Made by a program: the position numbers and the translations under genes. The notes beneath the pieces were generated by a model that searched no databases, had not been told where the DNA came from, and saw nothing but the letters and a program-made list of their open reading frames with translations. This document shows positions 25,390-47,229 of a DNA stretch of 64,000 nucleotides, in pieces. The stretch spans positions 1,088,001 through 1,152,000 of the forward strand of contig CAWEZH010000002.1 of assembly GCA_963813535.1 (NCBI GenBank), in the 5' to 3' direction. Numbering within the stretch: position 1 is the first letter of the stretch; every line of letters begins with the position of its first letter. This DNA comes from an uncultured Chloroflexia bacterium. GTDB lineage: Bacteria > Chloroflexota > Limnocylindria > Limnocylindrales > CSP1-4.

Positions 25390-25408
25390 TTGAGCGATCG
25401 TTGAGCGA
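25390..25408 (+). promoter_or_regulatory. putative OmpR-type direct-repeat box
   Basis: TTGAGCGA-tcg-TTGAGCGA with 11-bp period. Confidence 0.5.
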
Positions 25409-29837: not shown

Positions 29838-29913
29838 TGGCGTCCCCGGCAGGATTCGAACCTGCGACCTTGCGCTTAGAAGGCGCCTGCTCTGTCCACT
29901 GAGCTACGGGGAC
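29838..29913 (-). tRNA. tRNA-Arg(TCT)
   Basis: GTCCCCG TA GCTC AGTGGACA GAGC A GGCGC CTTCTAA GCGCA AGGTC GCAGG TTCGAAT CCTGC CGGGGAC G CCA. Confidence 0.96.
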
Positions 29914-30062
29914 GCTGCCAGCGCCTCAGTATGGCGCGGGCTACGACCGACAGCAGGCGGCGATCATCCAGGGGCTCGTACTCAATGACCTGTGGGCGCT
30001 CGACCCGGAACAACGGGTCGGGCGCTACATGCGCCTCCGAGCCGGCCCGATAATCTTGCGGA

Positions 30063-31043
30063 ATGGTCGCCGATCGCGCTGAGGGCCAGTTCTATCCTCC
30101 GATCGAACCGTACGAGTCCGGCATGCTCGACGTCGGGGACGGCCAGTCGATCCACTGGGAGGTTTCCGGTCATCCGACAGGCAAGGCGGCGGTCGTCCTC
30201 CACGGCGGGCCGGGAAGCGCGAGCAGCCCGGGCCGCCGTCAGTGGTTCGATCCGCAGCGGTACCGCATCGTCCAGTTCGACCAGCGTGGCTGTGGGCGGA
30301 GCACGCCGCATGCCGCCGATGCGACCACGTCTCTGTCGAGCAACACGACCCATCACCTGCTCGCCGACATCGAGCGGCTGCGTGAGCACCTCGGGGTCGC
30401 ACGGTGGCTCGTCGCGGGCTGGTCGTGGGGTGTGACCCTGGGTCTCGCCTACGCCGAGCGATACCCGCAACACGTGAGCGAGATGGTCCTCGGGTCGATC
30501 GTGATGACCAACCGTGCCGACGTGCGCTGGTTCGCCACCGACGCTGGTCGATTCTTTCCGGAGCAGTGGGCAGCATTCAGAGCCGGCGTCCCGCCCGAGG
30601 ATCGGGAGGGTGACCTGGTCGCCGCGTACGACCGACTCCTGAACGGGCCATTCGACCCGGCCGTCCGGCTCCAGGCCGCTCGAGACTGGGTCGCCTGGGA
30701 AGATGCGGTCCTCTCACTCGACGACGGCTATGTCGTGCCGAACCCTCGCTACGCGGACGAACGGTTCACGATCGCCTTCGCCCGCCTCGTCACCCACTAC
30801 TTCTCGCACGCGGCGTGGCTCGAGGAGGACGAGCTCCTCCGCAACGCCCCGCGACTGGTCGGCATCCCGGCCGTCCTGATCCACGGCCGTTTGGACATCG
30901 CCGGGCCACCGGATATCGCCTGGCATCTCGCGCATGCGTGGCCGGACGCGGAGCTGCATCTCATCGCCAGTGGCCACACCGGCAGCGCCGACGCCGACCG
31001 CATCATCCGCGAGTCGACCGACCGGTTCGCGGCGAAACCGTGA
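30063..31043 (+). CDS. pip: prolyl aminopeptidase (proline iminopeptidase)
   Basis: YPPIEPY, HGGPG, FDQRGCGRS, GWSWG, HGRLD. Confidence 0.92.
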   Translation: MVADRAEGQFYPPIEPYESGMLDVGDGQSIHWEVSGHPTGKAAVVLHGGPGSASSPGRRQWFDPQRYRIVQFDQRGCGRSTPHAADATTSLSSNTTHHLLADIERLREHLGVARWLVAGWSWGVTLGLAYAERYPQHVSEMVLGSIVMTNRADVRWFATDAGRFFPEQWAAFRAGVPPEDREGDLVAAYDRLLNGPFDPAVRLQAARDWVAWEDAVLSLDDGYVVPNPRYADERFTIAFARLVTHYFSHAAWLEEDELLRNAPRLVGIPAVLIHGRLDIAGPPDIAWHLAHAWPDAELHLIASGHTGSADADRIIRESTDRFAAKP

Positions 31044-31280
31044 CAGACCGTCACGGCTTGCCGGGACGAGCCCGGAGGAAGTTGTCATCCTGCGCGGAGT
31101 TGTCGAGTCGGCCGACGGCAACGAGATCCGGCTTCGGCCTCATCTGGGAAGTCCCCAGTCACTTGCGATACCCACGACAGACGTGCTCTATGAAGAGCAG
31201 GACCCCAAGCATCATGTCGCGATGGTGATGGTGCGCGGGACTGCACCCCTGAAGGTGTCCTGTCGATAAGGGCGGATCGG

Positions 31281-31520
31281 TTGCTGCGTCCGGCACGGCC
31301 GTCACGGTGGTCGGAGGCCGAGATCGAGGCTTGTGAGAAGCAAGCCCGCGAGAACGCCATCCAATACTGCATGTACTGGTACAGGGTGTCACGGGAGACT
31401 GCAGAGCACGTCGCGGACGATTGGGCCGACTACTACGCCCGCGTGTGCCGCTTCGGCTTTACCCCCGATTCCAATCCGTACGGGAACCAATGGCCCGGGT
31501 TTGCCCAGGGTTGGGGCTAG
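31281..31520 (+). CDS. hypothetical protein
   Basis: 79-aa ORF with aromatic/Cys-rich, non-shadow composition; no recognisable motif. Confidence 0.4.
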   Translation: MLRPARPSRWSEAEIEACEKQARENAIQYCMYWYRVSRETAEHVADDWADYYARVCRFGFTPDSNPYGNQWPGFAQGWG

Positions 31521-31611
31521 CGAAAGGTGGGCGACAGTGAGGCCATTTCCGAACCGACCCACATGCCATGCCGATAAGGTTGGCGTAAGCGCCGCTAGCT
31601 AGCCTGTCGGT

Positions 31612-31679
31612 ACCCCGGCTCCGCGTCCGGGACCTTCGATCCCGCTTCGCGGCCAGACGAGCCCGGAGCGATCGGGGTG
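31612..31679 (+). ncRNA. island hairpin element copy R1 (candidate ncRNA or recombination site)
   Basis: ccccggctccgcgtccgggaccTTCGATCccgc-ttc-gcggCCAG..; TAGCCT 6 nt upstream. Confidence 0.55.
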
Positions 31680-31709
31680 TCAGGAGGACGCGAGTAGGAT
31701 GGGGGCGCG

Positions 31710-32516
31710 ATGCCCCGCCCCTCGACACCGGAAGACGCGATGCGCGGCTTCCTCTCGGGCGAGGACCCGGGTCTCGCCCGCTTTCGTCGCGTCATGCGGC
31801 GGCTGCCCGACGGACCCCACTGCAAACTCTGCGCGGCGCCCTTCGAGGGTCCCGGGGGCGCCGTGCTGCGTCACGTAGGGTTCGCCCGCTTCCCCGGGAA
31901 CCCGGACATCTGCGGCTGGTGCATCAAGGAGCTCAACAAGGGCGGGGTCTTGGGCGCCGAGATCCCGGTGAGCCTCCTGTTCGCCGACATCCGCGGCTCC
32001 ACGGGCATCGGCGAGCGATCGAGCCCCACGGAGTTCCGCGCTTTCCTCGACCACTTCTACCGGCTCTCCTCGAAGGCGATACTCGATCACGACGGGATAG
32101 TCGACAAGTTCGTGGGCGACGAGGTCATCGGCCTCTTTTTCAGGGGGATCAGCGGGCCAGAACACTCGGCCGCCGCCATCGCGGCCGCTCGCGCACTGCT
32201 TGATGCTGTCGGGCGCGCCGATGCAGGCGATAGCGGGCCCATCCCCGTCGGTGCGGCCGTGCACACCGGAGACGCGTTTGTCGGCTCGACGGGAGCCGGG
32301 GGAGCGGTGAGTGACTTTACGGCGCTCGGCGACGTGGTGAACACGACCGCTCGTCTCGCGAGCGAGGCGGCCGCTGGGGAACTCCTCGTGTCGATCGAGG
32401 CGGCAAGGGCAGGGGACTTGGACACGCCCTCCTTGGAGCACCGGACGCTCAGCGTCCGCGGCCGGTCCGACGCTGTAGAGGTCGTCGCACTGCGATCGTC
32501 CGCCACACCGGGCTAG
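31710..32516 (+). CDS. class III adenylate/guanylate cyclase with N-terminal CxxC..CxxC ribbon
   Basis: CKLC..CGWC; LFADIRGST, DKFVGDEV, GDVVNTTARL. Confidence 0.9.
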   Translation: MPRPSTPEDAMRGFLSGEDPGLARFRRVMRRLPDGPHCKLCAAPFEGPGGAVLRHVGFARFPGNPDICGWCIKELNKGGVLGAEIPVSLLFADIRGSTGIGERSSPTEFRAFLDHFYRLSSKAILDHDGIVDKFVGDEVIGLFFRGISGPEHSAAAIAAARALLDAVGRADAGDSGPIPVGAAVHTGDAFVGSTGAGGAVSDFTALGDVVNTTARLASEAAAGELLVSIEAARAGDLDTPSLEHRTLSVRGRSDAVEVVALRSSATPG

Positions 32517-32701
32517 ACCTGCCCAGAGAGCAATGCGGCTGGCGCGTCGCGGCTCGACGAGCCTCGTCCATGCTGAGGGTCAGTTCCACGCGCCTGGCGC
32601 GTACTCCGGCTTCGATCGCTCGGCGGCCGGTACCGCGCCGGGAGTCATCCTTACCTATGTCGAGCGATTGACAGCCCGGTGCCTCCCGTACACTCGGCTC
32701 C

Positions 32702-33412
32702 GTGTCCGAACCGGCGACTCCAGAGGGCTCGGCTGATGCCACCAACGAGGAGCGCGCTCTTGAAGAGCGGCGTCGTCGTGACGAGCGAGTGCGGACCGTA
32801 CAGACGATGCTTCTCTTCGCCTTCGTGGGGGCGGCCATCGCCATCTTCATCGCGGCGTTGGTTTGGCTTGGGGTCCGATTCATCGGCGAGGCGCTCGTGC
32901 CCGCGGCGCTCATCGCCGCGATCGGCTTCCTCCTCGGTGAGGTCGTCCGGCTGGCGTTCGGAGAGATCCGGTCGAGTCGGGACGAGGCGCGCCTTCGCGT
33001 GCGCGAGGCGGAGGAGCGAGCACGAGCGTGGCGGCTCGCCCTCCTCGCGGACGCGCAGCGGCTGGTGGAGCGCGAACTGGATGCGATGCGGGCCCAAATC
33101 AACGGCGACACCCCGCCGGATCGTCCACGGCGGGCGACATACAGGCGGATCGACCGACTGGAGGCCGGCTCGAGGATACGCAACGAGCTTGAGGCGCTCG
33201 CGACAAGGGTTTATCAGCCGGAGAAGGCCGGAACGAGGGACCAAGAACTCTTGACGGAACTCAACTTCAGCGAAGATTGGATGACCACTGTGCTCCGCGT
33301 CCTGGAGGAACGCACCGTAGACAGTCAGTGGCCGAGTCGACTGGAGACCGTGGAAGTCGAGGTACCAAGAAACTACCAGGGATATGACGGGTTCAACGAT
33401 CCTCCGGACTAA
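32702..33412 (+). CDS. hypothetical membrane protein (2 TM + helical domain)
   Basis: Two hydrophobic segments then a charged helical region. Confidence 0.65.
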   Translation: MSEPATPEGSADATNEERALEERRRRDERVRTVQTMLLFAFVGAAIAIFIAALVWLGVRFIGEALVPAALIAAIGFLLGEVVRLAFGEIRSSRDEARLRVREAEERARAWRLALLADAQRLVERELDAMRAQINGDTPPDRPRRATYRRIDRLEAGSRIRNELEALATRVYQPEKAGTRDQELLTELNFSEDWMTTVLRVLEERTVDSQWPSRLETVEVEVPRNYQGYDGFNDPPD

Positions 33413-33531
33413 CGGCACTCACGTCACCGCCCCACCGTGACGGCTCGCGGCGATAGACAAGCGTTCGGATCGCTCCCTACGTAGGGACCTGGGCCCCTCG
33501 CTGGCAGTCGGTAGCTCGTCGCCTCGAAATC

Positions 33532-33596
33532 GCCCCGGCTCCGGTCCCGGACCTTCGATCCCACCTCGGTGGCCATTCCGTCCGGGCCGACGGGGC
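33532..33596 (+). ncRNA. island hairpin element copy R2
   Basis: gccccggctccggtcccggaccTTCGATCccac-ctcg-gtggCCA..tccgggccgacggggc. Confidence 0.6.
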
Positions 33597-33694
33597 ACCG
33601 CTTGGGCTTTCTGGTCGCCCAGTTCGTGCGACGTCGTACCCAACGACAGGCTCCGGCTCTGCCGGGGCCTTGTTGTCGTGAAGCGTTGGCTGAT

Positions 33695-33871
33695 CTAGAC
33701 CGAGCGGCCGACCGTGCTCAGGATCGTGCTGACCTGGCTACCCAGAACGACGAGGGCGATGATGGCGATGATGGCGATAAGCGCGAGGACGAGGGCATAT
33801 TCGGCGAGGCCCTGGCCTTCGTCGTCGCGGCGGAGCGACCGGATGAGCGAGTAGACGTGCGTCATGGGCAT
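33695..33871 (-). CDS. flp: Flp/Fap type IVb pilin
   Basis: Not in the ORF track (58 aa): MPMTHVYSLIRSLRRDDEGQGLAEYALVLALIAIIAIIALVVLGSQVSTILSTVGRSV; G|QxxxEY Flp motif; AGGAG RBS. Confidence 0.9.
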   Translation of the reverse strand: MPMTHVYSLIRSLRRDDEGQGLAEYALVLALIAIIAIIALVVLGSQVSTILSTVGRSV

Positions 33872-33989
33872 CCCGTGGTCCTCTCTCCTGCCGGTCGCTG
33901 GCGGTCACCCTCACGCTAGCCGCGACCCCGCGAATGGGCCATCCGTACTTAGGTCATGTGCAACGACGGCCATCACGGTCGCGGCCGCT

Positions 33990-34236
33990 TTACGTTTCGA
34001 TGTCGAAGCTGTCCGGCGACACGTCCAGCCATTGGGCGATCGCCGCCTTGGCAGCTTCCAGGGCGTCCCGGCGACTCGTCGCACTTACCGCCAGCCACGG
34101 TAGGGGCGTCGACGTACCAGCGGCCGTCCTGGGCGGTCGAGATGCGATATCCGGGTCGGTCGCCTCGAGCGATCATCCGCCGGCTCGCCTGGGCCACTGC
34201 CTCCCGTTGACGCGCCTCGCTCATCCGTCGTGCCAC
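33990..34236 (-). pseudogene. small HicB-like protein, +1 frameshift in a G run at ~34103
   Basis: Removing one base gives MARRMSEARQREAVAQASRRMIARGDRPGYRISTAQDGRWYVDALPWLAVSATSRRDALEAAKAAIAQWLDVSPDSFDIET*. Confidence 0.6.
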
Positions 34237-34281
34237 CCGGCTTAGTCTGGGTGAAGCACCGTCACCCTAGCTTGTCAACCA

Positions 34282-34352
34282 GCCCGGCTCCGGTCCCGGA
34301 CTTGCGATCCCGGTGTTCCCCCCGCCGGGCAGCTCGTCCGGGCCGTCCGGGC
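34282..34352 (+). ncRNA. island hairpin element copy R3
   Basis: gcccggctccggtcccggacttGCGATCccggtg..cgccgg..tccgggccgtccgggc; TAGCTT upstream. Confidence 0.6.
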
Positions 34353-34418
34353 AATCTATTGGGCTCATCGCGGTGCGAAGATGCCTCCGTCGGCGCAAGC
34401 AATCGGAGGTCGGGCGGC

Positions 34419-34673
34419 ATGAGCGACCAGCAGGCGGGGCCGAACGTCCGGCGCCTCGCGTTCTTCGAGGAACTCAGCGGCATCACCTTTCAGTTCGGCG
34501 AGGAGCCGGACGGCCAGTGGACGGGCAGGGCGGACAGCAAACAGTGGACCGCGGCCCACGTCGAACGCGGACCCGACGCGGAGGCCGCCGGCGCGAAACT
34601 CATCGCCTGGCTCGAGGAGAGCGGCGAGTTCCTGCCCGAGCCGCCCGACACCTTCTGGCCGTGGGCGCGATGA
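34419..34673 (+). CDS. hypothetical protein (84 aa)
   Basis: GGAGG RBS; MSDQQAGPNVRRLAFFEELSG.. Confidence 0.6.
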   Translation: MSDQQAGPNVRRLAFFEELSGITFQFGEEPDGQWTGRADSKQWTAAHVERGPDAEAAGAKLIAWLEESGEFLPEPPDTFWPWAR

Positions 34674-34712
34674 CCCGCCCGCGGGCCGCGCGAAGTTCGC
34701 CTAAGGCAGTAT

Positions 34713-34920
34713 CTAGGGTCGGACGCGCTTCTCTCGCTGCGTGGCGATCCAGGCCCGGCTCGCCTCCCAGTACGCCGACCCGCGCTCGATGCGGTCCCGC
34801 GCTGCCTGGACTTCCCACGCCGCGATCCAGGCGTCGGCCGTCGCCTCGGTCACGCTCCCGTCCTCGGCCCGAGGGCCCCGGCCAACGACTCTCTGGAGAA
34901 ATGGCCGGGCCTCTTCATCG
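34713..34920 (-). pseudogene. Trp-rich small hypothetical gene or fragment
   Basis: ..TEATADAWIAAWEVQAARDRIERGSAYWEASRAWIATQREKRVRP*; possible GTG start at 34853. Confidence 0.4.
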
Positions 34921-35043
34921 CTCCGCACCGGTCGTTGGTCCCGGTCCGGGCCGACCGGGTGGGGCGGGAGCCGGACCCGGCCGATGTCGAAAGCGTCGGG
35001 CGCGACTGCGAGCCAGTCGATATCAGCGCCCGTGCCTGTCCAC

Positions 35044-35457
35044 TCAGACCCGATCGGCCACGCTAACGCCACCGGGGCTAGGCCGGACGAACCCCGCATT
35101 GAGCGGATGCACCGTGACTCGTGCGTCACCCAACAGGTGCGCTTTCTCGCGAAGCTGCGCCACGACCTCGTCCGTCGGATCCCCGTACACGTCGATCGAC
35201 TGCAGGCGAACCAGATCAACGAAGTTCCGGAACGCCGGGCCGGCCACCCGGAAATGGGTCGCGAGCGACGCGGCGTCGGCATGAACGTGGACCACTGAGA
35301 TCGTCCTGTGATCCTCGTCGAGATACGCGGCGTACGAGATGATCCGTGGCTCATCAGCCTCGACGAGGTCCACTAGTTCGGTGATCCGCTTGGTCAGCTC
35401 ACCGAGACGGCCCTCGACGATCTCGGAGCGGTCGACGTATACGATCGGACCAGACAC
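35044..35457 (-). CDS. ABM-like dimeric alpha/beta barrel hypothetical protein
   Basis: GGAGG RBS; VEADEPRIISY, HADAASLATH, IDVYGDP. Confidence 0.7.
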   Translation of the reverse strand: MSGPIVYVDRSEIVEGRLGELTKRITELVDLVEADEPRIISYAAYLDEDHRTISVVHVHADAASLATHFRVAGPAFRNFVDLVRLQSIDVYGDPTDEVVAQLREKAHLLGDARVTVHPLNAGFVRPSPGGVSVADRV

Positions 35458-35530
35458 AGCGACCTCCGTGCGCGCGATCGGACGTCACCAGAACGCGTGC
35501 GTGTAGAGGCATACTCCTACACCCACCCGA

Positions 35531-35595
35531 CCCGGCTCCGGTCCCGGACCGTCGATCCCGCTCCCGCGGCCAGTCGGTCCGGGCCGACCGTGGGC
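35531..35595 (+). ncRNA. island hairpin element copy R4
   Basis: cccggctccggtcccggaccGTCGATCccgc-tccc-gcggCCAGTCggtccgggccgaccg. Confidence 0.6.
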
Positions 35596-35682
35596 AAGAC
35601 CCAGGCGCAGCATCCCCTCCTGCAGGCCTCGCGTAAGAGCCGTTTCCCGCCGACGACTTCGATATGTCTTTTCGAGCCCGCC

Positions 35683-36051
35683 TTACGCGCTCTCTACAGC
35701 GAGGGGTTCGAAGCTATATGTCCCAGTCCAATGCCATAAGCCGTCCGAATCCGCCGTAACGTTGGCGTGGGCCTCGAATCCAGCGAACTTCCCCGTCCCT
35801 CCCGAGAACGTCGCCGTCCCCTTATTGGCGGCAAGATCGAGTACGACGTGGCCCGTCGCAGTGTTGGCGGCTCCCGCGTCGAGGACGACGTCGGTGTCAA
35901 GAGTGCCCTCGCTCGCCGCCTCGGCGTAGATGACCTTCGCACCCGCTCCGATCTCGTCGAGGTTCGAGGAGGTGATCGTACAGAAGTCACCGGCCCGGCC
36001 CGTGTATTCCGAGCACTCTTTGGTGACCTGGAGATCCCCGCTGCGAGCCAT
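35683..36051 (-). CDS. hypothetical beta-barrel protein (allene-oxide-cyclase/dirigent-like)
   Basis: AAGGAGG RBS; TKEC..FCTITSSN, FSGGTGKFAGF. Confidence 0.65.
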   Translation of the reverse strand: MARSGDLQVTKECSEYTGRAGDFCTITSSNLDEIGAGAKVIYAEAASEGTLDTDVVLDAGAANTATGHVVLDLAANKGTATFSGGTGKFAGFEAHANVTADSDGLWHWTGTYSFEPLAVESA

Positions 36052-36319
36052 AGCGACCCTCCTTCTCGCAGTCCGTCGCCAATCAGCGCGACACCGGGAC
36101 TCTACACCCGGTGCGTTGTGGGCCAGCCACGCGGATCTTGTCGCCCGCCATGACAGCCGAGGCAATCCCCTACCTCGTTTGGAGACATCTGCCTTCAGCG
36201 GCGCGACACTGTGCAGACGTCTCACGTCGAGATGCTCTCGGGCCGCGCAAGAAGGACTAGGAGGCCCAGCAGGCGGCGGAGTCGCTCGTAGCCCAAGCCG
36301 AGCGACTCGGCGATGCGTG

Positions 36320-36620
36320 TCAGTAGATGCCCACGAACAACCGGCGCGGCGGTTCGTCAGCATCGAGGCCGGCGCTGAGGTCGGAACTGACCGGGTCGCC
36401 CGCGTCCCGCGGATCGATCACAACATGGTGCAGGCGCCAAAGGGCCTCCTGCTTTGGGTCGGTCGACCAAACGTGCGAAAGACGTACCTGAGCTCCAAGC
36501 TGGGACACGTACTCGACTGTCATGACGAGCCACGGGTGCTCCCACGCACCGCTTGGCAGGAGCAGATCGCTGACCTTGACGTATAGCTCCTCGTCTACGC
36601 CGGCAGCAATCGCTGCGAGG
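36320..36620 (-). pseudogene. 5'-truncated hypothetical gene fragment
   Basis: Protein-like open frame ..DEELYVKVSDLLLPSGAWEHPWLVMTVEYVSQ..FVGIY* with no obvious start/RBS. Confidence 0.3.
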
Positions 36621-36729
36621 TTAGCGAGACGACGTGACGGCTACGTGGTCGGACTATCCTCCTGGCCAGTGGGCCATGGTGAGCATCCGGACGCAGCGCA
36701 GCATGCGGCCCGTCGCCAAGGAGTCTCGA

Positions 36730-37464
36730 ATGGGCACCCGCGGGGTCCTGTCCCTGATCATGTGCTTGCCGTTAGCGGGCTGCATGAACAGCACACCGAA
36801 CCCGCCAGCCGGCCCAACGGCCGCGGCGATCGCGACGGTCGCGACGACGGCTTCGGTGCCCACCGCCGAAGCGACACCGACCACGACACCAGTGACGCCG
36901 AAGCCCGATCTGACCGCGGAGCCGACACCTCGGTGGTCGAAGCTCGAGCGGGCGATCCGGGACAACATTCGTGACGACGCGGCGGTGGGTTGCGCGCCGA
37001 GACGCCACGATCTCCCGCCGGGCACGGTCGCGGCCGTCGAGTGCAGGCCCGGCGTGGCCCTAGTCAGTCGTGTCGGCTTCTACCTCTTCGCCTCACCGGA
37101 CGACGCTTTCGCTGTCTACCTCGACCGCGTCAAAGAACAGGGCTTGGCGCTGAACACCGAGCGAGGCCTTCGCGGCTGGGAACGCGCCATGTACATCTGT
37201 AGCGACGAGCAGTGCGCGGAGCGCGACGCCGGCTTCGTAAATAGCGACGGCTACGCCAACTATCGATCCGTCATGGGCGCCATGTACATCGGCGTCTTGG
37301 GCACACGTGACGACATCGAAGACCTCAGGGGTTGGGCATGGGAGAGCCGCGAAGAATGTCCGCCGGGGCCGGATACATGCGCGGTTCCAGAAAGCCCGAG
37401 CCTCTATTGCGACGGCTCGCGCGTCGCCGCCGACGCCTCGTGCGTTGAACCCGTCAGCGCCTAG
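36730..37464 (+). CDS. hypothetical lipoprotein (Cys-containing extracellular domain)
   Basis: AAGGAG RBS; lipobox LAGC, P/T linker. Confidence 0.7.
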   Translation: MGTRGVLSLIMCLPLAGCMNSTPNPPAGPTAAAIATVATTASVPTAEATPTTTPVTPKPDLTAEPTPRWSKLERAIRDNIRDDAAVGCAPRRHDLPPGTVAAVECRPGVALVSRVGFYLFASPDDAFAVYLDRVKEQGLALNTERGLRGWERAMYICSDEQCAERDAGFVNSDGYANYRSVMGAMYIGVLGTRDDIEDLRGWAWESREECPPGPDTCAVPESPSLYCDGSRVAADASCVEPVSA

Positions 37465-37740
37465 GCGACCGGGCCCCCGCTGGACTGGAGTAGCCGCTAG
37501 GGCACGCAGATTTCGATGCCGACCTTGTATGCGCACCCACTGGATGACCAGGCCGCTAGAGACAGCAAGAACATGGCCGGCAGCGTCAGCAGCGTGAGCA
37601 GTCCGGCTACCAATGTCAGCCCGATAGCGGTGCGGTGCCCGGCACCGGAAGCCCCCGCGAGCGGGCCGGGCCGGCGTCGTCGCCGGCCGATGACCCTCGG
37701 GTCTACCTAGCGCGTTGAGGAGGCTCCACCTTGGCTGCGC

Positions 37741-38761
37741 CTACGGCACCCTCGTCGTCTCAACCGACACATCAAACCACCCGACATCGGGGGCATAGTC
37801 CGTGGCAACCACCCGACCATCCTGGATCACCGACGCCCATACGTAGAAGGGCCGGTGCTCCAGGCTCATGCCGATCGTGCCAGTGGGCGTGTCCGACTCA
37901 AAGAAGAAGCGGCCATGAAACATTGCTTGAAAGCGGGTCTCGCCAACGTAGTCAGGGTCGCGTCCCTGTAGCGTCGTTCGACCAGTGTGGAGATCGGTGA
38001 TCCACGTCCGATAGTGGTCCCAGCCCGCCACTGTCTCGGGCGTGTTGTCCTTCCCGACCCGCCGGTCGGGGACGCCGTCGCGATCGTCATCAAAGACAAC
38101 GCCATACGCGATCCACTGCTCGGTGGGATCCACGTCGGGTGGGAATTTGGGGAGTGTGAAATATAGCACCCGCCTCATACGAGCCCGCACCTCCTGGATG
38201 TCGACCCATGGGAAGTCATCGGATCCGGTGTCGCCCGACGGATCGATGTGTCGGCCTGGCGGTGGCGCTAGGTAGCGTCGGTCCCCGAGATCTCTGCTTC
38301 ACAAGGATCGGCACGAGGATCGCGCCTCCGGCGGGCTCGGTGCGAACCGGCGCGGGCCAGTCCTCCTTCAGACTCGCCTCGGTCCACAGGATCGGCGTGG
38401 GCGTGGGGCTGGGCGTCGCCGTAGGCGTCGCGCTGGGGCCAACCTGGGCAGACTCGCTGGGATCCGCGCTTGGCGTCGGGCTCGGACCGCCGACCGCTGA
38501 TGGGTCGGGCCGGTTCACGTAGTACAAGCCGCCGAGCGCAAGCACGGCGATGACCGCGGCCGCAACGACGCGGGCCGGCAGCGTCATGGTCGGGAGCCTC
38601 GCCGGGGCTGACCACCAGGCGAACCTACGGGGCTGCGGGCGCCCAGCGGCCACGGCCATGATCCGCTGATAGAGATCGTCCTCGCCGCCGACGTCGGCGG
38701 CGCGTTCTCGAAGCGCCGCGGCGAGGTCACTGGCGACGCTGTCCTGGCTGCGCCTAGTCAT
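37741..38761 (-). CDS. membrane-anchored anti-sigma-like protein, frameshifted at ~38270
   Basis: Overlaps the sigma gene stop (ATGA); N-terminal helix, TM, P/T linker (38216 ORF) continuing in the 37741 frame. Confidence 0.6.
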
Positions 38762-39321
38762 GCTTGAGTCTCCAGAGCCCGATCTAGGGATTTGCGTGCG
38801 GCGTGAAGTCGCGACTTCGCCGTGCCCACCGGGATGCCGAGCCTATGAGCGATCTGTTCGAGCGGCTGATCCAGGAGGTGGTGCATGGCGAGGATCTGGC
38901 GATCTGCGATGGACAGTCGGTCGAAGGCCGCAAGGACGGCGGCTCGCTCCAGCGCCGCCGGGCCGGGATCGGCCTGCTGGAGGTCGGCGCCTTCGAGGGT
39001 GATCTCCCGCACGCGGCCTCGATTGCGGAGGTGGTCGCGGCAACGATTGGCGAGCACAGTGTTCAGCCAGGCGCTGAAGCGGCGATCGTCCCGCAGCCGA
39101 GGGAGATTGAGCCAGGCTGAAACGAAGGCCTCCTGCGTCGCATCGCGGGCATCGGCCTCATTGCGCAGGATCGACCGGGCCAGGCGCAGCATGTCGGGCA
39201 ACCGGGCCGCCACAAGGGCGCCGAACGCCTCCGCGTCGCCGCGACGGGCTCGCGCCACGAGCGCGTCGTCAGCGGCGTCAGACCCGTTGTGCACGGTCTC
39301 TGTCAGTGCCACGGGAAGCAT
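38758..39321 (-). CDS. ECF RNA polymerase sigma factor
   Basis: LVARARRGDAEAF, DARDATQEAF, FSAWLNTVLAN, LGIPVGTAKSRLH. Confidence 0.92.
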   Translation of the reverse strand: MLPVALTETVHNGSDAADDALVARARRGDAEAFGALVAARLPDMLRLARSILRNEADARDATQEAFVSAWLNLPRLRDDRRFSAWLNTVLANRCRDHLRNRGRVREITLEGADLQQADPGPAALERAAVLAAFDRLSIADRQILAMHHLLDQPLEQIAHRLGIPVGTAKSRLHAARKSLDRALETQA

Positions 39322-39395
39322 GGTCGCGGCGGGAAAGGTTCCATGCTAGGTACGACGTCTGGCGAGTCGCCCGGGTTCGACCTGATTTGTGTTGT

Positions 39396-39529
39396 GTAGG
39401 GCGTCGACGTATCAGCGGCCGTCCTGACCGGGCATGAGGCGATATCCGGGGCGGTCGCCTCGAGCGATCATCCGCCGGCCAGCCTGGGCCGTGGCCTCCT
39501 GTTGTCGCCTCGCTCGTCCGTCGTGCCAT
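39396..39529 (-). pseudogene. second, truncated copy of the HicB-like gene
   Basis: Degenerate nucleotide duplicate of 34100-34236 (MARRTSEA.., MIARGDRPGYR); W codon changed to TGA at 39412-39414. Confidence 0.65.
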
Positions 39530-39703
39530 GCGGTCAGTGTGGGGTGAGCGCGACACCAAGGCTGTCACCACCCCCAGGCGCGTGCCGCGCTTGTACGCTT
39601 GTAGCACCTCCTATTCGGCGGTCGTACTCATTTTCTGACACGGGTGGAGCCGGAGAGTGGTAACGCTGCCTTCCATTTCGCGTCATTGGATCGGATGGCG
39701 CTC

Positions 39704-40186
39704 ATGGAACGATCGAGACCCACGCAACGTCGGTCCCGTCGAAGGTGGGTGCCGTGGCTCGTCGCGGCCGCGATCGGTCTCGGCCTGATTGGTTACGGCT
39801 TCACATACGCTCCGCCGCCGACATCGCTCAGCTTGACCGGGAAGGTCTGGCAGTGGACTGCGTACGGCGATGATTCCGGCACGGTCCCAATCGAGGATCC
39901 TGAGCGCTACACCATCGTCTTCAACGAAGATGGGACCGCGGTCGTCACGGCAGACTGCAATCGATCGCCGTGGAGTTACACGATCGCAGGGTCCTTCCTA
40001 CGACCCACGATATGGCTGCAATCGCACGCGGAAGAATGGTCCCCGTGCGCGCCAGGCTCTAGGGCTCAGCTCTTTGTTGATCACCTGTGGCCGACCGACA
40101 CATTCAGTGTCTCGGCCGATCGCCTGGAACTCGATCGGGACCACTACGGAATCAGTTGGGCCCTCACGCTCAAAGCGTCTCCCTGA
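39704..40186 (+). CDS. META (HslJ-like) domain protein
   Basis: TM; LTGKVWQW..YTIVFNEDG....ADCN. Confidence 0.75.
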   Translation: MERSRPTQRRSRRRWVPWLVAAAIGLGLIGYGFTYAPPPTSLSLTGKVWQWTAYGDDSGTVPIEDPERYTIVFNEDGTAVVTADCNRSPWSYTIAGSFLRPTIWLQSHAEEWSPCAPGSRAQLFVDHLWPTDTFSVSADRLELDRDHYGISWALTLKASP

Positions 40187-40253
40187 CGGCTCGAGCATTC
40201 GACCGGCGGGACATGGCGACACGTGTGGGACAACGGCCAACAGGTAGGGTGTC

Positions 40254-40332
40254 ATCGCCCCGGCCCCGGTCCCGGACCTTCGATCCCGGCTATCCCCCCG
40301 CCGGTCAGTCGGTCCGAGCCAACCGAGGCGAT
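40254..40332 (+). ncRNA. island hairpin element copy R5
   Basis: atcgccccggccccggtcccggaccTTCGATCccggc..gccggTCAGTCggtccgagccaaccgaggcgat; TAGGGT upstream. Confidence 0.6.
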
Positions 40333-40346
40333 CGGGAGGGTCCGCG

Positions 40347-40703
40347 ATGCTCCGAGCCGAGGAAGCCTACGAGGGATACGAGCGGGCGTGGAACGAGCCC
40401 GGGCGGGCGGCTGCTCTTCTCGAAAGGGTCTGGGCGCCGGAGGGTGTCTACGCCGACGACGACGTGCCAGACGGTGTCGTCGGGCCCGTGGCGCTCGCCG
40501 CCCTCATCGTCGAGACACATAAGGCGCTGCCGGGCTTCCGGGTCTGGGCGACGAGCGGCCCGCGGATGCTTGCGGAGCGCATGGCGATCACCTGGGCGGG
40601 GGAAGGAGGCGACCCGCCGATCCCGCAGGCCGGCACCGATGTCATCGAGTTCGGCCCTGACGGCCGGATCACCCGCATCACGGACGTGCTCGACATCGAC
40701 TGA
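40347..40703 (+). CDS. SnoaL/NTF2-like protein
   Basis: YERAWNEP, VWAPEGVYAD, GTDVIEFGPDGRI. Confidence 0.8.
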   Translation: MLRAEEAYEGYERAWNEPGRAAALLERVWAPEGVYADDDVPDGVVGPVALAALIVETHKALPGFRVWATSGPRMLAERMAITWAGEGGDPPIPQAGTDVIEFGPDGRITRITDVLDID

Positions 40704-40857
40704 CCAGGCCGGCGGAGACAGTCCGGCCTGGTGACGGCATCCAGGCGCAGATGGCGAGGATGGAAGCCAGAGGTATCACCGATACGGACGCGATGCTCGA
40801 GGACGCGGCCTGCTTTCTCCTTGGAGTCTAGTGTGCGGGCCGCGGCCGCTGGCCTGT

Positions 40858-40930
40858 CAGCGCCTCGGCTCCGGTCCCGGACCTTCGATCCCGCTTCGGC
40901 GGCCAGTCGCTCCGGGCCGACCGGGCACTG
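40858..40930 (+). ncRNA. island hairpin element copy R6
   Basis: cctcggctccggtcccggaccTTCGATCccgc-ttcg-gcggCCAGTCgctccgggccgaccgggc. Confidence 0.6.
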
Positions 40931-41069
40931 CGCCTCAGCCAAACTTCGACCTAGACAATGCAAGCGGGCTATCGACTTTCGGCGCGGCGCCGACACGTGG
41001 CCGATGACGCGAAAGAGGCGCGGATAGACAGGGGGTCTAAGCTGGTCGCACGTCACGGGGGACGTCGCG

Positions 41070-41934
41070 TTGCCGTCAAAGGAAACGCAGACGGGCGTGG
41101 GGATACTCATCGGCTTGGTCGTCCTCATCGCCCTCGCTCAACTTGTTATCGCCGCTCCGGCCTGGTCAGGCCCGGGACCTCGACCGGCGATCTTGGTCCC
41201 CCCCGTAGCCGGCGTCACGCCCGAGACGCCCACACCCGGGCGTGTTCCGTCCACTCCAGCGCCGGCCACTCCAGCCCCTGGCGTGGCCGTCGTTGAATTG
41301 ACCCGGTCCACAGCGGACGCGGGACCGATTGATCTGCAAGCTGGCGGATCATCGTCACCGCCAGCGCCGACTCCGAGCGGCTTGGCGACGCCTGCCCCCT
41401 TGTCGTCACCGCCAGCGCCGACTCCGAGCGGCGTCGCGACGCCACCCCCCGGCGAGGTTTCCTTCCCGACTTCGCAGCCGACGCCGCCCGCGGCCTCGCC
41501 CACGCCCGACCCGACGCGGCCGCCATCGCCGCCACCGACTGCAGCACCGACCCACCAGCCCACGCGGGCGCCCACACCGCCGCCAACGCCGGCGCCGACG
41601 CCCAACCCAACGCCGGCGCCCACGCCCGCCCCAACACCGGATCCGACGCCGGCCCCGACACCGGATCCAACGCCGCCGCCGACGCCCGACCCAACGCCGG
41701 CACCGACACCCGATCCGACGCCGGATCCGACGCCGGCCCCGACACCGGATCCAACGCCGCCGCCGACGCCCGACCCAACGCCGGCACCGACACCCGATCC
41801 GACGCCGGATCCGACGCCCGACCCGACGCCGGCCCCGACACCGGATCCAACGCCGGATCCGACACCCGACCCCAACGCCGGAACCGACACCCGATCCAAC
41901 GCCGGATCCCACGCCCGAGCCGCAGCCCGGGTAA
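41070..41934 (+). CDS. membrane-anchored Pro/Thr-rich (PTPD/PTPA repeat) protein, probable +1 frameshift at ~41870
   Basis: N-terminal TM; 12-nt coding tandem repeats 41570-41920; the repeat continues to a stop at 41934 in another frame. Confidence 0.6.
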
Positions 41935-42248
41935 CGTCGGTCCCCAGAACTGGGCCCGCTAGCCTTTCGACCGCCGCGGGTCCGGTCGACCGATGGTGTT
42001 CTGCAACCCTGGCGCGCGTACATCGCCCGGTCACCGGGGGCGCGTTGACGAAGCCATCGGTGATTGGGTCGGTTGCCCGGTGCGGCTAGGAAGTCGGAGT
42101 CATCGTCCGGGCCGTGGGTCTAACTTGACAGTGAGGCTTGCCGCGGTCGTCGTCCCAGGAGCGAGTCGCCACCGATGATTGCCAAGCTCGGGGTACGGTC
42201 GCAAGATGACCGTCCGTCGCAGTCCGAACCACTGGGAGGAGCGGAGAG

Positions 42249-42638
42249 ATGGCGCATCCGAACGAGGATCTGGTCCGTCGCGGTTTTACGGCGTTCGGGA
42301 CCGGAGACATCGCGACGCTAGGCGAGTTGTTCGCCGACAACATCGTCTGGCATGTCGGTGGACGCAGCCCGATCACCGGGGATTACAAGGGCAAGGAACA
42401 GGTCTTCGGGTTTTTTGCCCAGCTCGCCGAACGGGCTGGGGGGACTTTCCGCCTTGACATCCACGACGTGCTGGCGAACGACGAGCATGTGGTCGCGCTG
42501 GTCAAGGCGACCGGGGAGCGCCAAGGGAAGACGCTGAACAACAACGGAGCGCAGGTCTTCCATGTGCAGGGTGGAAAGGTCACCGAGGTGTGGTTCCACC
42601 CGGACGACCAATACGCCGGCGACGACTTCTGGAGTTGA
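42249..42638 (+). CDS. SnoaL/NTF2-like protein
   Basis: MAHPNEDLVRRGF, WHVGGRSPITGDYKG, HDVLANDEH. Confidence 0.9.
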   Translation: MAHPNEDLVRRGFTAFGTGDIATLGELFADNIVWHVGGRSPITGDYKGKEQVFGFFAQLAERAGGTFRLDIHDVLANDEHVVALVKATGERQGKTLNNNGAQVFHVQGGKVTEVWFHPDDQYAGDDFWS

Positions 42639-42655
42639 CCCGGACCGAGCCAACT

Positions 42656-42712
42656 CTCGATCCCGGCTGCCATCGCCGACGGCCGGTCAGTCAGCCCGGG
42701 CCGACCGGGGCA
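42656..42712 (+). repeat. 3'-partial hairpin element copy R7
   Basis: Similarity begins at TCGATCccggctg..cggccggTCAGTCagcccgggccgaccggggc; left arm absent. Confidence 0.55.
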
Positions 42713-42787
42713 TTCATTGAGCAGTTAACAACGGGCACATCGCAGGGTGGCCCACTCACGGGAGCACGCCGCGTTGAGCCGGACATT

Positions 42788-42826
42788 TTAGAAGGCGCCT
42801 GCTCTGTCCACTGAGCTACGGGGACG
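42788..42826 (-). repeat. displaced 5' half of tRNA-Arg(TCT) (att-like repeat)
   Basis: Identical to 29876-29914; tRNA positions 1 to the end of the anticodon loop, with conserved upstream AGCGCCTCAG and a -10-like TATGCT. Confidence 0.9.
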
Positions 42827-42894
42827 TCGTTAGCGCCTCAGCATACGCACGAAAACCGCCGGATCGACCTTGGCTCGTTGACGACCATCCGTGA

Positions 42895-43563
42895 TCAGGT
42901 CCTCTTGAATGTCCCGTCGCACGTCCGGTTCGTGGCATCAAGCACGTGAGTGAAGATCTTCTTGTTGTTATCCATGTCGTTATGCGGGACCCCGGGGTCC
43001 TCAAAGACGTGGCACGCGCCGCCATCGAGCCGCGATGAGTTGTTCGAGACGACACCATCGGTCCGGCTGTAGATCGTGGTCCAGTAAACGTGGGTCGGCG
43101 TGTCGTCACCGGCATTGAGACTGCGCAGGAATGACCTCGACGGGCACATCTGGCCACCCTGCGACGAGAACAGCAGGCATGTCCTGAGTAGCCCGTACTG
43201 CGGGGTCCCAAGTGACACGTAGGTGTCGACTCTGGAGGTGCCGATCGTCTTGATGAAGTATCGAGCGCTCAGACCGCCCATGCTCTGCGCCACGATGTCG
43301 ACGTCATCCCAGCCTTTGCTGGTGATGAAGTCGCGGATCGCCTGGGCGTTCTTGATGTTGTCCTGGCCCGGCAACCGAATCGCTTCTGCCTGGCGGCCGG
43401 CGAGCCTGAAGCGGTCGATCATCTCGGCCCATGTCGACGGGCTACCTCGCCACCCATGGACGAGCAGCACCGGATCGTTCTTGGCGGCTGCCGCCGTGCT
43501 CGGCGCCATCGCGACTGCCAGGATTCCCAAGATCGGCACCAGGATCCACCGCGTCGCGCGCAT
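42895..43563 (-). CDS. secreted small lipase/esterase (Bacillus/Streptomyces LipA-like)
   Basis: Signal peptide; PVLLVHG, AQSMGG, SLGTPQYG, DGVV, H. Confidence 0.85.
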   Translation of the reverse strand: MRATRWILVPILGILAVAMAPSTAAAAKNDPVLLVHGWRGSPSTWAEMIDRFRLAGRQAEAIRLPGQDNIKNAQAIRDFITSKGWDDVDIVAQSMGGLSARYFIKTIGTSRVDTYVSLGTPQYGLLRTCLLFSSQGGQMCPSRSFLRSLNAGDDTPTHVYWTTIYSRTDGVVSNNSSRLDGGACHVFEDPGVPHNDMDNNKKIFTHVLDATNRTCDGTFKRT

Positions 43564-43744
43564 GTCGGCCCCTCCCCATTCGACGGTGAGCAGTACCGCG
43601 GAGGGTACCCGCACCCCGGCGTGGGTGGAATAGCACAGGTGACGCCACAGCGTGGCGTCGACGTTTCCGGCGGTACAGGCGTTCTAGGCCGCGCCGCTGA
43701 CGGGGTACGCTACGGGCGTTGGGATCAAGAGCCGGGGAGGACCC

Positions 43745-44413
43745 ATGACCGACGAAAGCGCGCGCTCACGGCGCGCAGTCCTTGCTGCCGGTCTTGGTGG
43801 CGTAGCCGCGGCAGCAACCGCGGCCGTCATACGGCCTGCCGCGGCCCTCGGCGCCAACGGCGACAACGTCGTGCTCGGACAGGCAAATACGGCGACGGCG
43901 GCGACGGCGATCCAGAACACGGGGACGGCCGATCCGGACACGCTCGTGGTCGATAGCCAATCGGGCTTCGCTGTCATCGCGAGGAGCGAGGACGGAAGCG
44001 GCATCGAGGGCCAGGCCCCGAACGGGCTGGGCGTATCCGGACTCGGACAGGTCGGGGTCGTCGGGGAGGGAACTGAATCGGGCGTTCGGGGCATCAGCTC
44101 CGGTAATGGGATCGGGGTTTTCGCGACGACGGAGACCGGGCTCGCACTCCTCGTCGACGGCAAGGTGGGCCTGACGCGGAGCGGCAGGGTCTCAGTCGCA
44201 CGAGGCAAGGGATCCGTCGACATCACCATCCCCGGCGGCATCACCAGTCGGACGGTCGTCATGGCGACCCTCCAACGGTATCGCACCGGGGTCGCGATCG
44301 CGGGTGTCAACCTTAACTGGCCTAGCGCCGGCAAGGCCCGGATCTATCTCACGAAGATCCCGTCGACCACGACGACGACGCCTGTCGCGTGGATCGCTAC
44401 GGAACTCCCGTAG
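43745..44413 (+). CDS. Tat-exported hypothetical protein
   Basis: SRRAVL twin-arginine signal; Gly-Val repeats; GGGAGG RBS. Confidence 0.75.
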   Translation: MTDESARSRRAVLAAGLGGVAAAATAAVIRPAAALGANGDNVVLGQANTATAATAIQNTGTADPDTLVVDSQSGFAVIARSEDGSGIEGQAPNGLGVSGLGQVGVVGEGTESGVRGISSGNGIGVFATTETGLALLVDGKVGLTRSGRVSVARGKGSVDITIPGGITSRTVVMATLQRYRTGVAIAGVNLNWPSAGKARIYLTKIPSTTTTTPVAWIATELP

Positions 44414-44524
44414 CGTTTCGCCGCCTCGCGCCCTTGGACGCAGCGAGCGCGTCCCCGGGCACTGCGATGCCGTTCCTCTGGTCGGACCCGACGTAGCCGC
44501 CGCGGGGCTTACCTGCGGCGCGGG

Positions 44525-44759
44525 TCAGTCGAGCTTCCCCGTCGCGATCCACCGGCCGAAGAGCTCGACCTTGTCGGACGACCAGCCGCCGTCACACGGC
44601 ATCGTGCCCTGCCGGAGACGACCGAGGATCGCCTCGGCGTTCGACCGGACCGTCAACCTCCCAGAGATCGAAGGCGAAGGCCATGGATTCGCGGTCCCTG
44701 GGTCGAAACAGGGGCTTGATGTGCTGCGCGAAGCTGACCGGTCGATCGGCGTCTGCCAT
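44525..44759 (-). pseudogene. small conserved hypothetical protein, frameshift at ~44650
   Basis: SFAQHIKPLFRPRDRESM..FDLW continues in another frame as AEAILGRLRQGTMPCDGGW..LFGRWI. Confidence 0.6.
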
Positions 44760-44854
44760 GGTCGCGGTGATCTCCTCGTGCTTCGATCTGGATGTTGAGA
44801 GCACCAGGCAGGGCGGTCAGGTTCTTCGCCGCCTGCCTGGTGCCTCGCTCAGGA

Positions 44855-45751
44855 CTAGGCGAACCGCTTGACGAAGTCGAGCGCGGTCTGGGCGACCTCG
44901 CGCCAGCCGTGGTCGATGGTGAGGGAGTGGCCTCGGTTCGGGATCTTCACGATCTCCGTCACGCCGGGGTTGCGCTTCTGCCGCTTGTAGGCGGCGTCCG
45001 CGATCGCCCATGGCACCGTGTGGTCCTTCTCTCCCTCGATGATCAGCAGCGGGCCGCGGTCCGGGTTCTTCGTGTCCACCTTCGCTTCGGTCCACGGATT
45101 GAGGTTCGCGTTGCCCATCTGCGCGAGCGAGATCCCGGAGGCGGCGACATGGAACTTGTCGTAGAGCTCCATGGCCTCATCCTCGTCCAGGTTGTTCGTC
45201 CAGGCGTATCGGAACTGGTCGAACGTGAGCGTCAGCGCGCGGCCGCGATTGCGCGGGTTGATCAGGAACGGGCCGGCCGACCTGAGCACCGACAGCGGCA
45301 GCGGCAGAACGCCACGGAAGACTCCCGGGTCGATCGCCACGGTGACCGCCGCGAGCCCCTGCCCCGCGAGCATCTCCGCGAGCAGACCGCCCGTCGAGTG
45401 GCCCATGACCACTGGCTTCCTGTCGAGGGCACTGATGATCTGGGTCGTGTGATCGGCCACCTGCTTCAGGGTCTTGTTGGCGAGGACCTCGGGCTCCGCA
45501 CGGGCTTCCTCGACGGTTTCGGGATCATCAGGCCAGTCTGGCGTCAGCGCGACGTACCCAGCTTCCTCGAACAGCGCGGCCCAGTTGTCCCAGCTCGAGG
45601 GCAACAGCCACAGCCCGTGGATGAAGATCACCGGTGTCGCCGTGGTCGCGTTCGCGCGCTCGATCTGCTCGCGCTCGCGATCGGAGATCGTCGCGCCCTC
45701 TCGATCCTGAGGGGCCACGGGCAATTCGGCCTGTGCAGACGTCGTGTTCAT
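44855..45751 (-). CDS. alpha/beta hydrolase
   Basis: FIHGLW, GHSTGG, KDHTVP, RGHSL. Confidence 0.9.
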   Translation of the reverse strand: MNTTSAQAELPVAPQDREGATISDREREQIERANATTATPVIFIHGLWLLPSSWDNWAALFEEAGYVALTPDWPDDPETVEEARAEPEVLANKTLKQVADHTTQIISALDRKPVVMGHSTGGLLAEMLAGQGLAAVTVAIDPGVFRGVLPLPLSVLRSAGPFLINPRNRGRALTLTFDQFRYAWTNNLDEDEAMELYDKFHVAASGISLAQMGNANLNPWTEAKVDTKNPDRGPLLIIEGEKDHTVPWAIADAAYKRQKRNPGVTEIVKIPNRGHSLTIDHGWREVAQTALDFVKRFA

Positions 45752-45770
45752 CCTTCGACTCTCCTCTCGT

Positions 45771-46568: not shown

Positions 46569-46740
46569 GAGGGGTTGCGTCCTTTCCGTGTCTGGGCGCG
46601 AAGGCAGTGGGTCGTCGTGGTAACGATGATCAGTGGCCTCACCCACCCTCTCGATCGGCGTGGCCCGCGGCATCGGCCCGGAGACGGGTGTATGGGATGA
46701 CACGGATCTCGAGCGAGGCAGGGGTGCCTGGCATCGAGTG

Positions 46741-46883
46741 GAGAACAGCGCTCCCCCATGCGTCCCGGCTCTCGCAAGGAAGGTGAGAAGGCGGTCCATC
46801 TCCGCGTCGCGCCCCACCAGGTGACCGGCTGGACGAGCGTCGCCTAGCCATGCCTCGCACTGGGGAGCGGGGGTTTCGAGCAT
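46741..46883 (-). pseudogene. N-terminal remnant of a LuxR-family AAA-ATPase regulator
   Basis: LVGRDAEMDRLLTFLARAGTHGGAL breaks off just before the expected Walker A. Confidence 0.4.
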
Positions 46884-47124
46884 GGAGCGCAGCGGTGCGG
46901 GTGGACTGACAGGTCCGCACGGCAAGTTTGGACCTTCGGCAGATGGCGGGCAAGCGCCCGACGCCGCGTTTGGAGTCGTCTGACCCAAGACGGTCGATCG
47001 ACCCCGGCCAGGACCATGGCGGCATTAGACGAAGCTGTTCCGTCGACCGCTTGATGCGCCTCTTGACGTAGCCGCTGACTGCCTGGTCAGCACAGCGGTA
47101 TCGCGCTCGGTCGATCGTTCCGAT

Positions 47125-47229
47125 CTAGCCGCGCGGGTCGTCTGGGACGCGCAGCAGCCCGGTCGCGAACATGGCGATGAGAACCGCCACGACCACGCAT
47201 AGAGCGAGCGGAACTAGTACTTCACTCAT
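47125..47229 (-). CDS. putative 34-aa single-TM small protein
   Basis: MSEVLVPLALCVVVAVLIAMFATGLLRVPDDPRG*; not in the ORF track. Confidence 0.45.
   Translation of the reverse strand: MSEVLVPLALCVVVAVLIAMFATGLLRVPDDPRG

Follow-up and report, generated by a model that had tools for sequence, protein, structure and literature searches.

A tRNA-Arg(TCT) gene and the orphan copy of its 5' half

The window analyzed here is a 64,000-nt stretch of DNA (positions 1,088,001 to 1,152,000 of contig CAWEZH010000002.1, assembly GCA_963813535.1) from an uncultured Chloroflexia bacterium of the Limnocylindrales (CSP1-4), and the subject is an island on the 5' side of its transfer RNA (tRNA) gene for tRNA-Arg(TCT), together with a displaced copy of the 5' half of that gene (Table 1). 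The genome has 51 tRNA genes, of which this is the only one for tRNA-Arg(TCT) and the only one whose product decodes AGA. An exact repeat of 39 bp was noted in a preliminary description of the sequence and was verified here: 29876-29914 and 42788-42826 are identical at 39/39 bases in direct orientation, and the identity runs, as described, to tRNA position 38, with which the anticodon loop CTTCTAA ends. In our assessment the two copies are very probably attachment (att) sites of integrative elements which replaced the 5' part of the tRNA gene via Xer-like tyrosine integrases and now form a decayed, immobile array.

The similarity between the copies extends upstream to 57 nt at 91% identity: AGCGCCTCAG stands in register 6 nt beyond each copy, and is followed by CATACT at one and TATGCT at the other (minus strand). 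These hexamers had been described as -10 boxes. Their resemblance and register were reproduced, while a sigma-70 consensus scan called neither a promoter nor a terminator at either leader; thus they are to be read as sequence resemblances only. The geometry is of the type recognized by Islander, i.e., a full tRNA gene with a 5' fragment in the same orientation and on its upstream side. When both strands of the window were scanned without gaps, no further site matched the repeat at 25 or more of its 39 bases, and the tRNA was the sole Rfam match over 29-51 kb.

Table 1. Features of the tRNA-Arg(TCT) island and its surroundings (window coordinates unless a contig is given; G numbers denote genomes of the genus, G000 being that of the window)
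Feature	Position	Strand	Remarks
Intact tRNA-Arg(TCT)	29838-29913	-	ARAGORN; Rfam RF00005, 69.2 bits
Direct repeat, copy 1	29876-29914	-	tRNA position -1 to 38
Direct repeat, copy 2 (orphan tRNA 5' half)	42788-42826	-	39/39 identical to copy 1
Leader of the intact tRNA	29915-29940	-	not of native type; shares CTGAGGCGCT with the other leader
Distal att arm of inner element B	42713-42787	-	begins right after TTCTAA
Element-type leader / integrase-proximal arm of older element A	42827-42885	-	alignment A1
Inner unit B, cargo only	29915-42787		Pfam, PHROGs, NCBIfam
Outer unit A, older accretion	42827-49772		no outer tRNA fragment left
Still older accessory DNA	49773-52090		common to the sub-clade G024, G021, G113, G076; absent from empty-site genomes
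Backbone gene, DNA-methyltransferase-like	52091-53491	+	starts 103-192 nt from the tRNA in empty-site genomes
Prolyl aminopeptidase	30063-31043	+	exceeds the TIGR01249 cut-off
Adenylate/guanylate cyclase domain protein	31710-32516	+	
Extracytoplasmic function (ECF) sigma factor	38758-39321	-	
META/anti-sigma-like protein	39644-40186	+	possible anti-sigma neighbour of the ECF sigma factor
SnoaL-like protein (unit B)	42249-42638	+	
tRNA-Asn(GTT), outside the window	C2:276068-276142		three displaced 3' halves follow

The same tRNA gene in related genomes

The 5' half (with at most two mismatches) is present in 77 of the 101 genus genomes searched, and seven relatives hold more than one copy of it. 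Four of the seven have close copies on the same strand (1.5-6.9 kb apart overall), spaced 2.2 kb in G056, 1.5 kb in G070 and 5.8 kb in G017, with three copies in G081; in G059, G093 and G063 the copies are on separate contigs. At every relative locus fetched, the downstream copy was the full tRNA and the upstream copies were 5' halves. Between its copies G056 encodes an intact 300-aa tyrosine recombinase, divergently oriented to the tRNA at a distance of ~100 nt from the tRNA 5' end; its neighbours are a helix-turn-helix (HTH) gene and a 152-aa open reading frame (ORF). G017 carries a frameshifted integrase copy at the equivalent place, G081 carries N-terminal integrase remnants, and G070 keeps only a Fic-domain gene between the copies. 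The integrases of the relatives combine PF00589 with an N-terminal SAM-like core-binding domain and score far under the XerC/XerD cut-offs. Moreover, the displaced halves keep a leader of native type, which is TAGACTC in G056 and G070 and TAGAGT in G017.

A minimal intact element is the 2.2-kb one of G056 (locus L013, contig C12, 5502-7696). Its XRE-like HTH gene lies in the direction of the tRNA and its 152-aa ORF and 300-aa integrase lie opposite; once the element is integrated, transcription from the native tRNA promoter would enter the HTH gene. The 1.5-kb remnant of G070 between displaced 5' half and tRNA (L014, contig C15, 5955-7425) has a 365-aa ORF as its only one, with an HPFxxGNGR motif that we take to be of Fic type. 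The array of G081 also contains a tRNA-Ala(CGC) gene (L011, contig C2, 11085-11159), ~290 nt past the middle tRNA-Arg half.

Element ends at the orphan half

Two shared sequences mark the ends of these elements: i) a common leader, of the form CGTGCGTgaACTGAGCAGCTAAC, occupies the 60 nt before the half supplied by the element (alignment A1), and ii) the ~75 nt after TTCTAA of the displaced halves form a common distal arm, GTCC..GCGGCGTGCTCC plus TGTTAGTTGCTCAGT (alignment A2). To avoid circularity, the nhmmer profiles were built from relatives only and with the tRNA part excluded, and the whole window was searched. The top match of the distal-arm profile was at 42713-42785 on the minus strand (E = 5.7e-4; the next, 6.6), which places the distal arm of the 5'-half-replacing family (the G056/G078 type) directly after the orphan half; this arm is homologous to those that follow displaced halves in G081, G017, G056 and G070. 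On the other side of the orphan half, the top match of the leader profile was at 42830-42885 on the minus strand (E = 0.041; the next, 4.9), and the integrase gene that follows this leader in the relatives is missing in the window. Therefore the orphan half, standing between an element leader and a distal arm, is in the attP-like configuration of a tandem junction, and it resembles the middle one of the three copies of G081. What flanks the orphan half on its leader side had been taken for the displaced native promoter of the tRNA; it is instead the leader and integrase-proximal arm of an older element belonging to the same family.

At the intact tRNA the integrase-proximal arm is represented only by the 10-nt CTGAGGCGCT. 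Four matches to GTTAGYTGCTCAGT occur in the window against 2.4 expected, a number that is not significant alone, and only the positions next to the orphan half are meaningful.

Empty sites and the extent of the island

Of 131 genus genomes, 115 possess the backbone gene that lies beyond the island (Table 1). Its start and the 5' end of the tRNA are on one contig in 67 genomes (G000 included), for which the gaps between them were computed by hand: the gap was 103-192 nt in 19 genomes, which are empty sites, 200-1000 nt in 12, 1-3 kb in 27, 3-10 kb in five, and over 10 kb in four (10.8 kb in G081, 15.3 kb in G076, 22,178 nt in the window and 52 kb in G064). The comparison with related genomes which the preliminary description had called for thus found the empty site in 19 of 67, and the occurrence of the island is sporadic. 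The description had also named conserved synteny among relatives as the outcome that would speak against an island; the 130 other genus species (131 genomes including G000) do not share it, and matched it only through scattered single genes at up to 90% identity.

The limits first given to the island, 29876..42845, proved too narrow. Against the closest relative, G024 (flank 89% identical), synteny ends at 29914 and resumes at 49773, and against G113 it resumes near 50756. Compared with empty-site relatives, the accessory DNA is ~20-22 kb long, from 29915 to ~50.5-52.1 kb, and the 12.9-kb unit B is the inner part of this composite, decayed tandem array of ~20-22 kb.

All ten small-gap sites inspected (10/10) have the same native leader, TAGACTC and then 7-8 nt before tRNA position 1, and neither copy in the window carries it. 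Since both window leaders are non-native, it would be island DNA that drives the tRNA; as judged from these comparisons, tRNA-Arg(TCT) appears to depend on upstream DNA derived from the island, with the leader as its putative promoter. The earlier suggestion that the 5' half and the leader came from an integrating element is supported by the integrase-bearing elements of the same architecture and with homologous ends which relatives carry at this tRNA, and by the missing native leader. The intact tRNA gene acts as attR, with a 5' half derived from the element and a 3' half from the chromosome.

A clade of integrases facing tRNA 5' ends

Homologues of the clade integrase (E <= 1e-15) were found in 35 of 101 genus genomes, and 21 integrase loci were examined (20 fetched, plus G056). 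A tRNA stood head to head with the integrase in 18 of the 21, its 5' end facing the integrase at a distance of 50-250 nt, and the tRNAs covered ten anticodons: Arg-TCT, Arg-TCG, Arg-CCG, Gly-TCC, Gly-CCC, Met-CAT, Lys-CTT, Pro-TGG, Leu-TAG and Val-GAC. An exact copy of 37-40 nt of the tRNA 5' end lay 2.5-12 kb upstream in 4 of 9 loci (G106, G012, G103 and G088). A sequence of the AACTGAGCA type, judged by eye, occurs 5-30 nt upstream of the rebuilt tRNA at other tRNA targets (~13/20 of the 5'-type elements).

Outside the genus, 60 of 80 integrase loci were scanned for tRNAs. Two relatives from metagenome-assembled genomes (labelled Microthrixaceae and Acidimicrobiaceae; 44-50% identity) have the head-to-head layout, and distant relatives at up to 41% identity with an adjacent tRNA have the classical layout of the tRNA followed by the integrase gene. 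A quick maximum-likelihood tree of 46 integrases (L052 and L053 removed as duplicates of L026 and L029; above L073 only five distant entries kept, as outgroup) placed 19/19 of the 5'-type loci in one clade, with a Shimodaira-Hasegawa-like approximate likelihood ratio (SH-aLRT) of 100. The same clade also holds one of six 3'-type loci (Streptomyces flavidovirens) and five loci without a tRNA.

Search for a recombinase

No recombinase is visible within the 12.9 kb, in agreement with the preliminary description. Among the 77 ORFs of at least 90 aa in 23.4-50.4 kb none had a recombinase Pfam domain, and no integrase remnant was detected in the window by tblastn with the integrase of a relative (E <= 1) or by the clade profile reading through stops (E <= 10). 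Nor does the window hold a clade integrase of the G056/G078 type diverging from the 5' end of the tRNA. The search for a tyrosine integrase acting in trans, proposed earlier, was run over the whole genome (3.28 Mb in three contigs, 92.9% complete): only two PF00589 matches were found (C2:776 kb and C2:820 kb). Each has the canonical XerC/D C-terminal motif, and no tRNA adjoins either of them; a serine recombinase was not found in the genome. An integrase inside the island, as Islander-type islands have, is absent, the two XerC/D-like genes of the genome lying elsewhere.

A second array at tRNA-Asn(GTT)

The family profiles also matched the same genome at G000:C2:282.8-285.7 kb, outside the window. 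There a second decayed tandem array occupies C2:276068-285763, likewise with no integrase present. The tRNA-Asn(GTT) gene (Table 1) is followed by three displaced copies of its 3' half, which span positions 39-75, are 92-100% identical and lie at C2:277540, 282918 and 285727. Its middle junction, on the opposite strand, has the order leader - half - arm, and the arms are clearly similar to those of the window. Judging from this likeness, the leader - half - arm scaffold works in both polarities. The leader motif in the tRNA-Asn array cannot be a tRNA promoter, and hence must be at least partly an att or regulatory element.

Proposed origin and alternative explanations

The decayed array of 5'-replacing elements could have arisen as follows. 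The attP of the circular element would consist of the outward-pointing integrase gene, the leader/arm, tRNA positions 1-38 and the distal arm. Its recombination with the chromosomal tRNA gene would give two products: a) at the far end, the native promoter, the native 5' half and the distal arm, and b) a working tRNA made of the element leader, the element 5' half and the chromosomal 3' half. At the locus studied here, element A would have integrated first and element B later, into the rebuilt tRNA, pushing A outward; deletions would then have removed both integrases and the outer end of A, with a cargo-only island of ~20-22 kb as the outcome. More generally, repeated integration would build arrays and deletions would leave cargo-only fossils. 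We infer the order of events to be A, then B, then the deletions. The crossover presumably falls within the block of positions 1-38, and the anticodon loop, where the block borders the arm, is its most likely place, because in five elements the identity block ends at the loop or just past it. In the window it ends at loop position 38; in G106, G012, G088 and G103 it ends with the loop or 1-2 nt beyond.

Several observations weigh against such an origin or loosen parts of it: i) unit A has no outer attL, there being no third copy of the tRNA half, so that its origin as an element rests on one arm; ii) as the window lacks any integrase remnant, membership in the family rests on short att arms; iii) these arms measure ~60-75 nt and have modest E values (5.7e-4 and 0.041), and the leader of the intact tRNA (29915-29975) was not detected by the family leader profile; iv) no adjacent tRNA was found in 3 of the 21 integrase loci, and no 5'-half repeat in five of the nine loci searched up to 20 kb upstream; v) with the genome 92.9% complete, an integrase could be encoded in unassembled DNA; vi) the cargo shows no hallmarks of mobile elements, excisionase, replication, transfer and phage genes being absent by Pfam, PHROGs and NCBIfam; and vii) the identity block of the tRNA-Asn array begins just after the anticodon loop and excludes it, which makes the exact position of the crossover uncertain.

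The alternative that fares best, though we hold it to be unlikely, leaves the att sites as they are and makes unit B still mobile in the manner of a cis-mobilizable element (CIME), served in trans by an integrase from an incoming relative or from unassembled DNA. The identity of the repeats (39/39), a distal arm that the family profile still recognizes, the related integrases (E <= 1e-15) in 35/101 genus genomes and the incompleteness of the assembly are all in its favour; what stands in its way is that the 3.28-Mb, three-contig assembly contains no clade integrase and that the leader profile does not recognize the integrase-proximal arm beside the intact tRNA. Four public soil-metagenome runs were also consulted, which yielded short contigs of related strains (the best DNA run contained 0.19 of the sampled words, and no RNA run containing the region was listed); none of the contigs spanned either repeat copy, joined across the repeats or carried an excised or circular junction, a result that is uninformative rather than negative. 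The few joints seen in them had sides of 20-38 nt, mostly between copies of a ~65-bp repeat described below, and carry no weight here.

Much less probable still is an orphan half made by local duplication of the tRNA and deletion, or by illegitimate recombination, with no site-specific integration at all. In its favour, the window holds no recombinase and the cargo resembles ordinary accessory genes of metabolism and regulation; yet the repeat stops exactly at the boundary of the anticodon loop, which is also the boundary in five integrase-bearing elements at five tRNAs (G056, G106, G012, G103 and G088), and both flanks of the orphan half match the element arms of other genomes. An assembly artefact, in which the 39-bp repeat joined two unrelated regions of a metagenome-derived assembly, is the least credible of all, given a contig of 2.04 Mb in a three-contig assembly, outer flanks in synteny with relatives, where tRNA-Arg ... 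backbone gene ... tRNA-Glu follow one another as expected, and the recurrence of the same architecture in independent assemblies.

Cargo and neighbouring features

Beyond the genes in Table 1, unit B contains many further ORFs without family assignment and seven copies of a ~65-bp GC-rich repeat, and unit A encodes a lipase-like protein, an alpha/beta hydrolase, an NAD-binding protein, a pirin and a SnoaL-like protein (Pfam). The ~65-bp repeat, CCGGCTCCGGTCCCGGACCTTCGATCCCG ... CGGTCCGGGCCGACCG, is intergenic in all seven copies (window 31613-42711) and had no Rfam match. Elsewhere in the genome it occurs only twice, at C2:276736, inside the tRNA-Asn array, and at C2:1825089, ~500 nt from tRNA-Arg(TCG).

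Other repeats lie within the unit as well. A ~135-185-nt sequence at 33690-33875, inside the ORF 33569-33919, recurs at C3:506749 (88%), in three tandem copies at C3:805087-805932, at C2:1936902 and as tandem sets in many relatives, and is probably a small paralogous gene family. A long tandem repeat with a 12-bp period at 41449-41915 is rich in GCC/GAC/ACC and coding-like in several frames; similar low-complexity tracts are scattered in the relatives. A variable region of G113 on the 3' side of tRNA-Arg(TCG) (L046, C5:1668000-1687900) carries copies, 90% identical, of two genes of unit B (window 30047-31053 and 36934-37465). A ~140-nt repeat that is also found at window 34713-34869 occurs there three times, and the other genes of that region match scattered places in G000. 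Outside the island, window 23397-27606 contains two amino-acid-permease-like ORFs, 23397-25376 and 26557-27606, the latter comprising only the C-terminal half of the permease domain; they share an 86-nt repeat (77% identical, at 25116 and 27292) and may be a duplicated or truncated paralogue.

Relation to known systems and implications

Most tRNA integrases and islands reportedly restore the 3' part of the gene. The island of the window resembles Islander-type islands in having an intact tRNA and a same-strand displaced fragment at its ends, in its sporadic occurrence among relatives and in its tandem accretion; it differs in lacking an integrase, and filters that require one would probably reject it. 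The configuration filter of Islander does accept a 5' fragment upstream of the tRNA gene (PMC4383910).

Replacement of the 5' half is itself already known, and the array of the window is a fossil example. For the HTVC019P-type pelagiphages of SAR11, integration into tRNA-Cys, tRNA-Leu and tRNA-Arg was demonstrated experimentally and replacement of the 5' half was shown. Those phages are podoviruses of Alphaproteobacteria, whereas the elements of the genus are small and non-phage (2.2 kb in G056), have a Xer-like integrase and occur in metagenome-assembled genomes of soil Chloroflexota type, the copy in the window being a fossil. Islands of Klebsiella pneumoniae with clade I.d integrases are likewise on the 5' side of a tRNA-Arg gene, upstream of arg2, unlike all the others of that study (bioRxiv 10.1101/2020.11.02.365908); their reported sublocation is the D-loop, whereas the block in the window extends to the end of the anticodon loop. 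With CIMEs as defined in the literature (PMC6323972), unit B shares the retention of attL and attR after the loss of integration and transfer genes; unlike them it has no helper element or integrase in its genome, and mobilization is hypothetical. The tandem accretion resembles that of tycheposon arrays, in which degraded remnants occur and partial tRNAs separate the elements (bioRxiv 10.1101/2020.12.28.424599).

For the locus itself, an orphan 5' tRNA half without an integrase is explained as a trace left by integration in a rare, though real, polarity. Such islands will escape search programs that demand an integrase or look for 3' fragments. The 67 genomes provide a comparative set at one locus with intact elements, broken elements, fossils and empty sites. 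The 5'-side integrase clade lends itself to studies of polarity choice at a symmetric anticodon stem-loop, and of promoter capture by a mobile element at an essential tRNA gene present in single copy.

A wider reading, which we put forward only tentatively and regard as possible rather than probable, is that Xer-like integrases of a single monophyletic clade, distributed over Limnocylindrales-type Chloroflexota and some Acidimicrobiia, have reversed the polarity with which elements enter tRNA genes, the att scaffold itself also serving on the opposite strand at tRNA-Asn of G000. The elements of this clade would replace the 5' half and the upstream control of single-copy tRNAs via a AACTGAGCA-type leader shared across targets; the dependence of the host would then block the loss of decayed elements except by precise recombination between halves, and such a ratchet would explain the islands of 20-50 kb upstream of tRNA-Arg(TCT).

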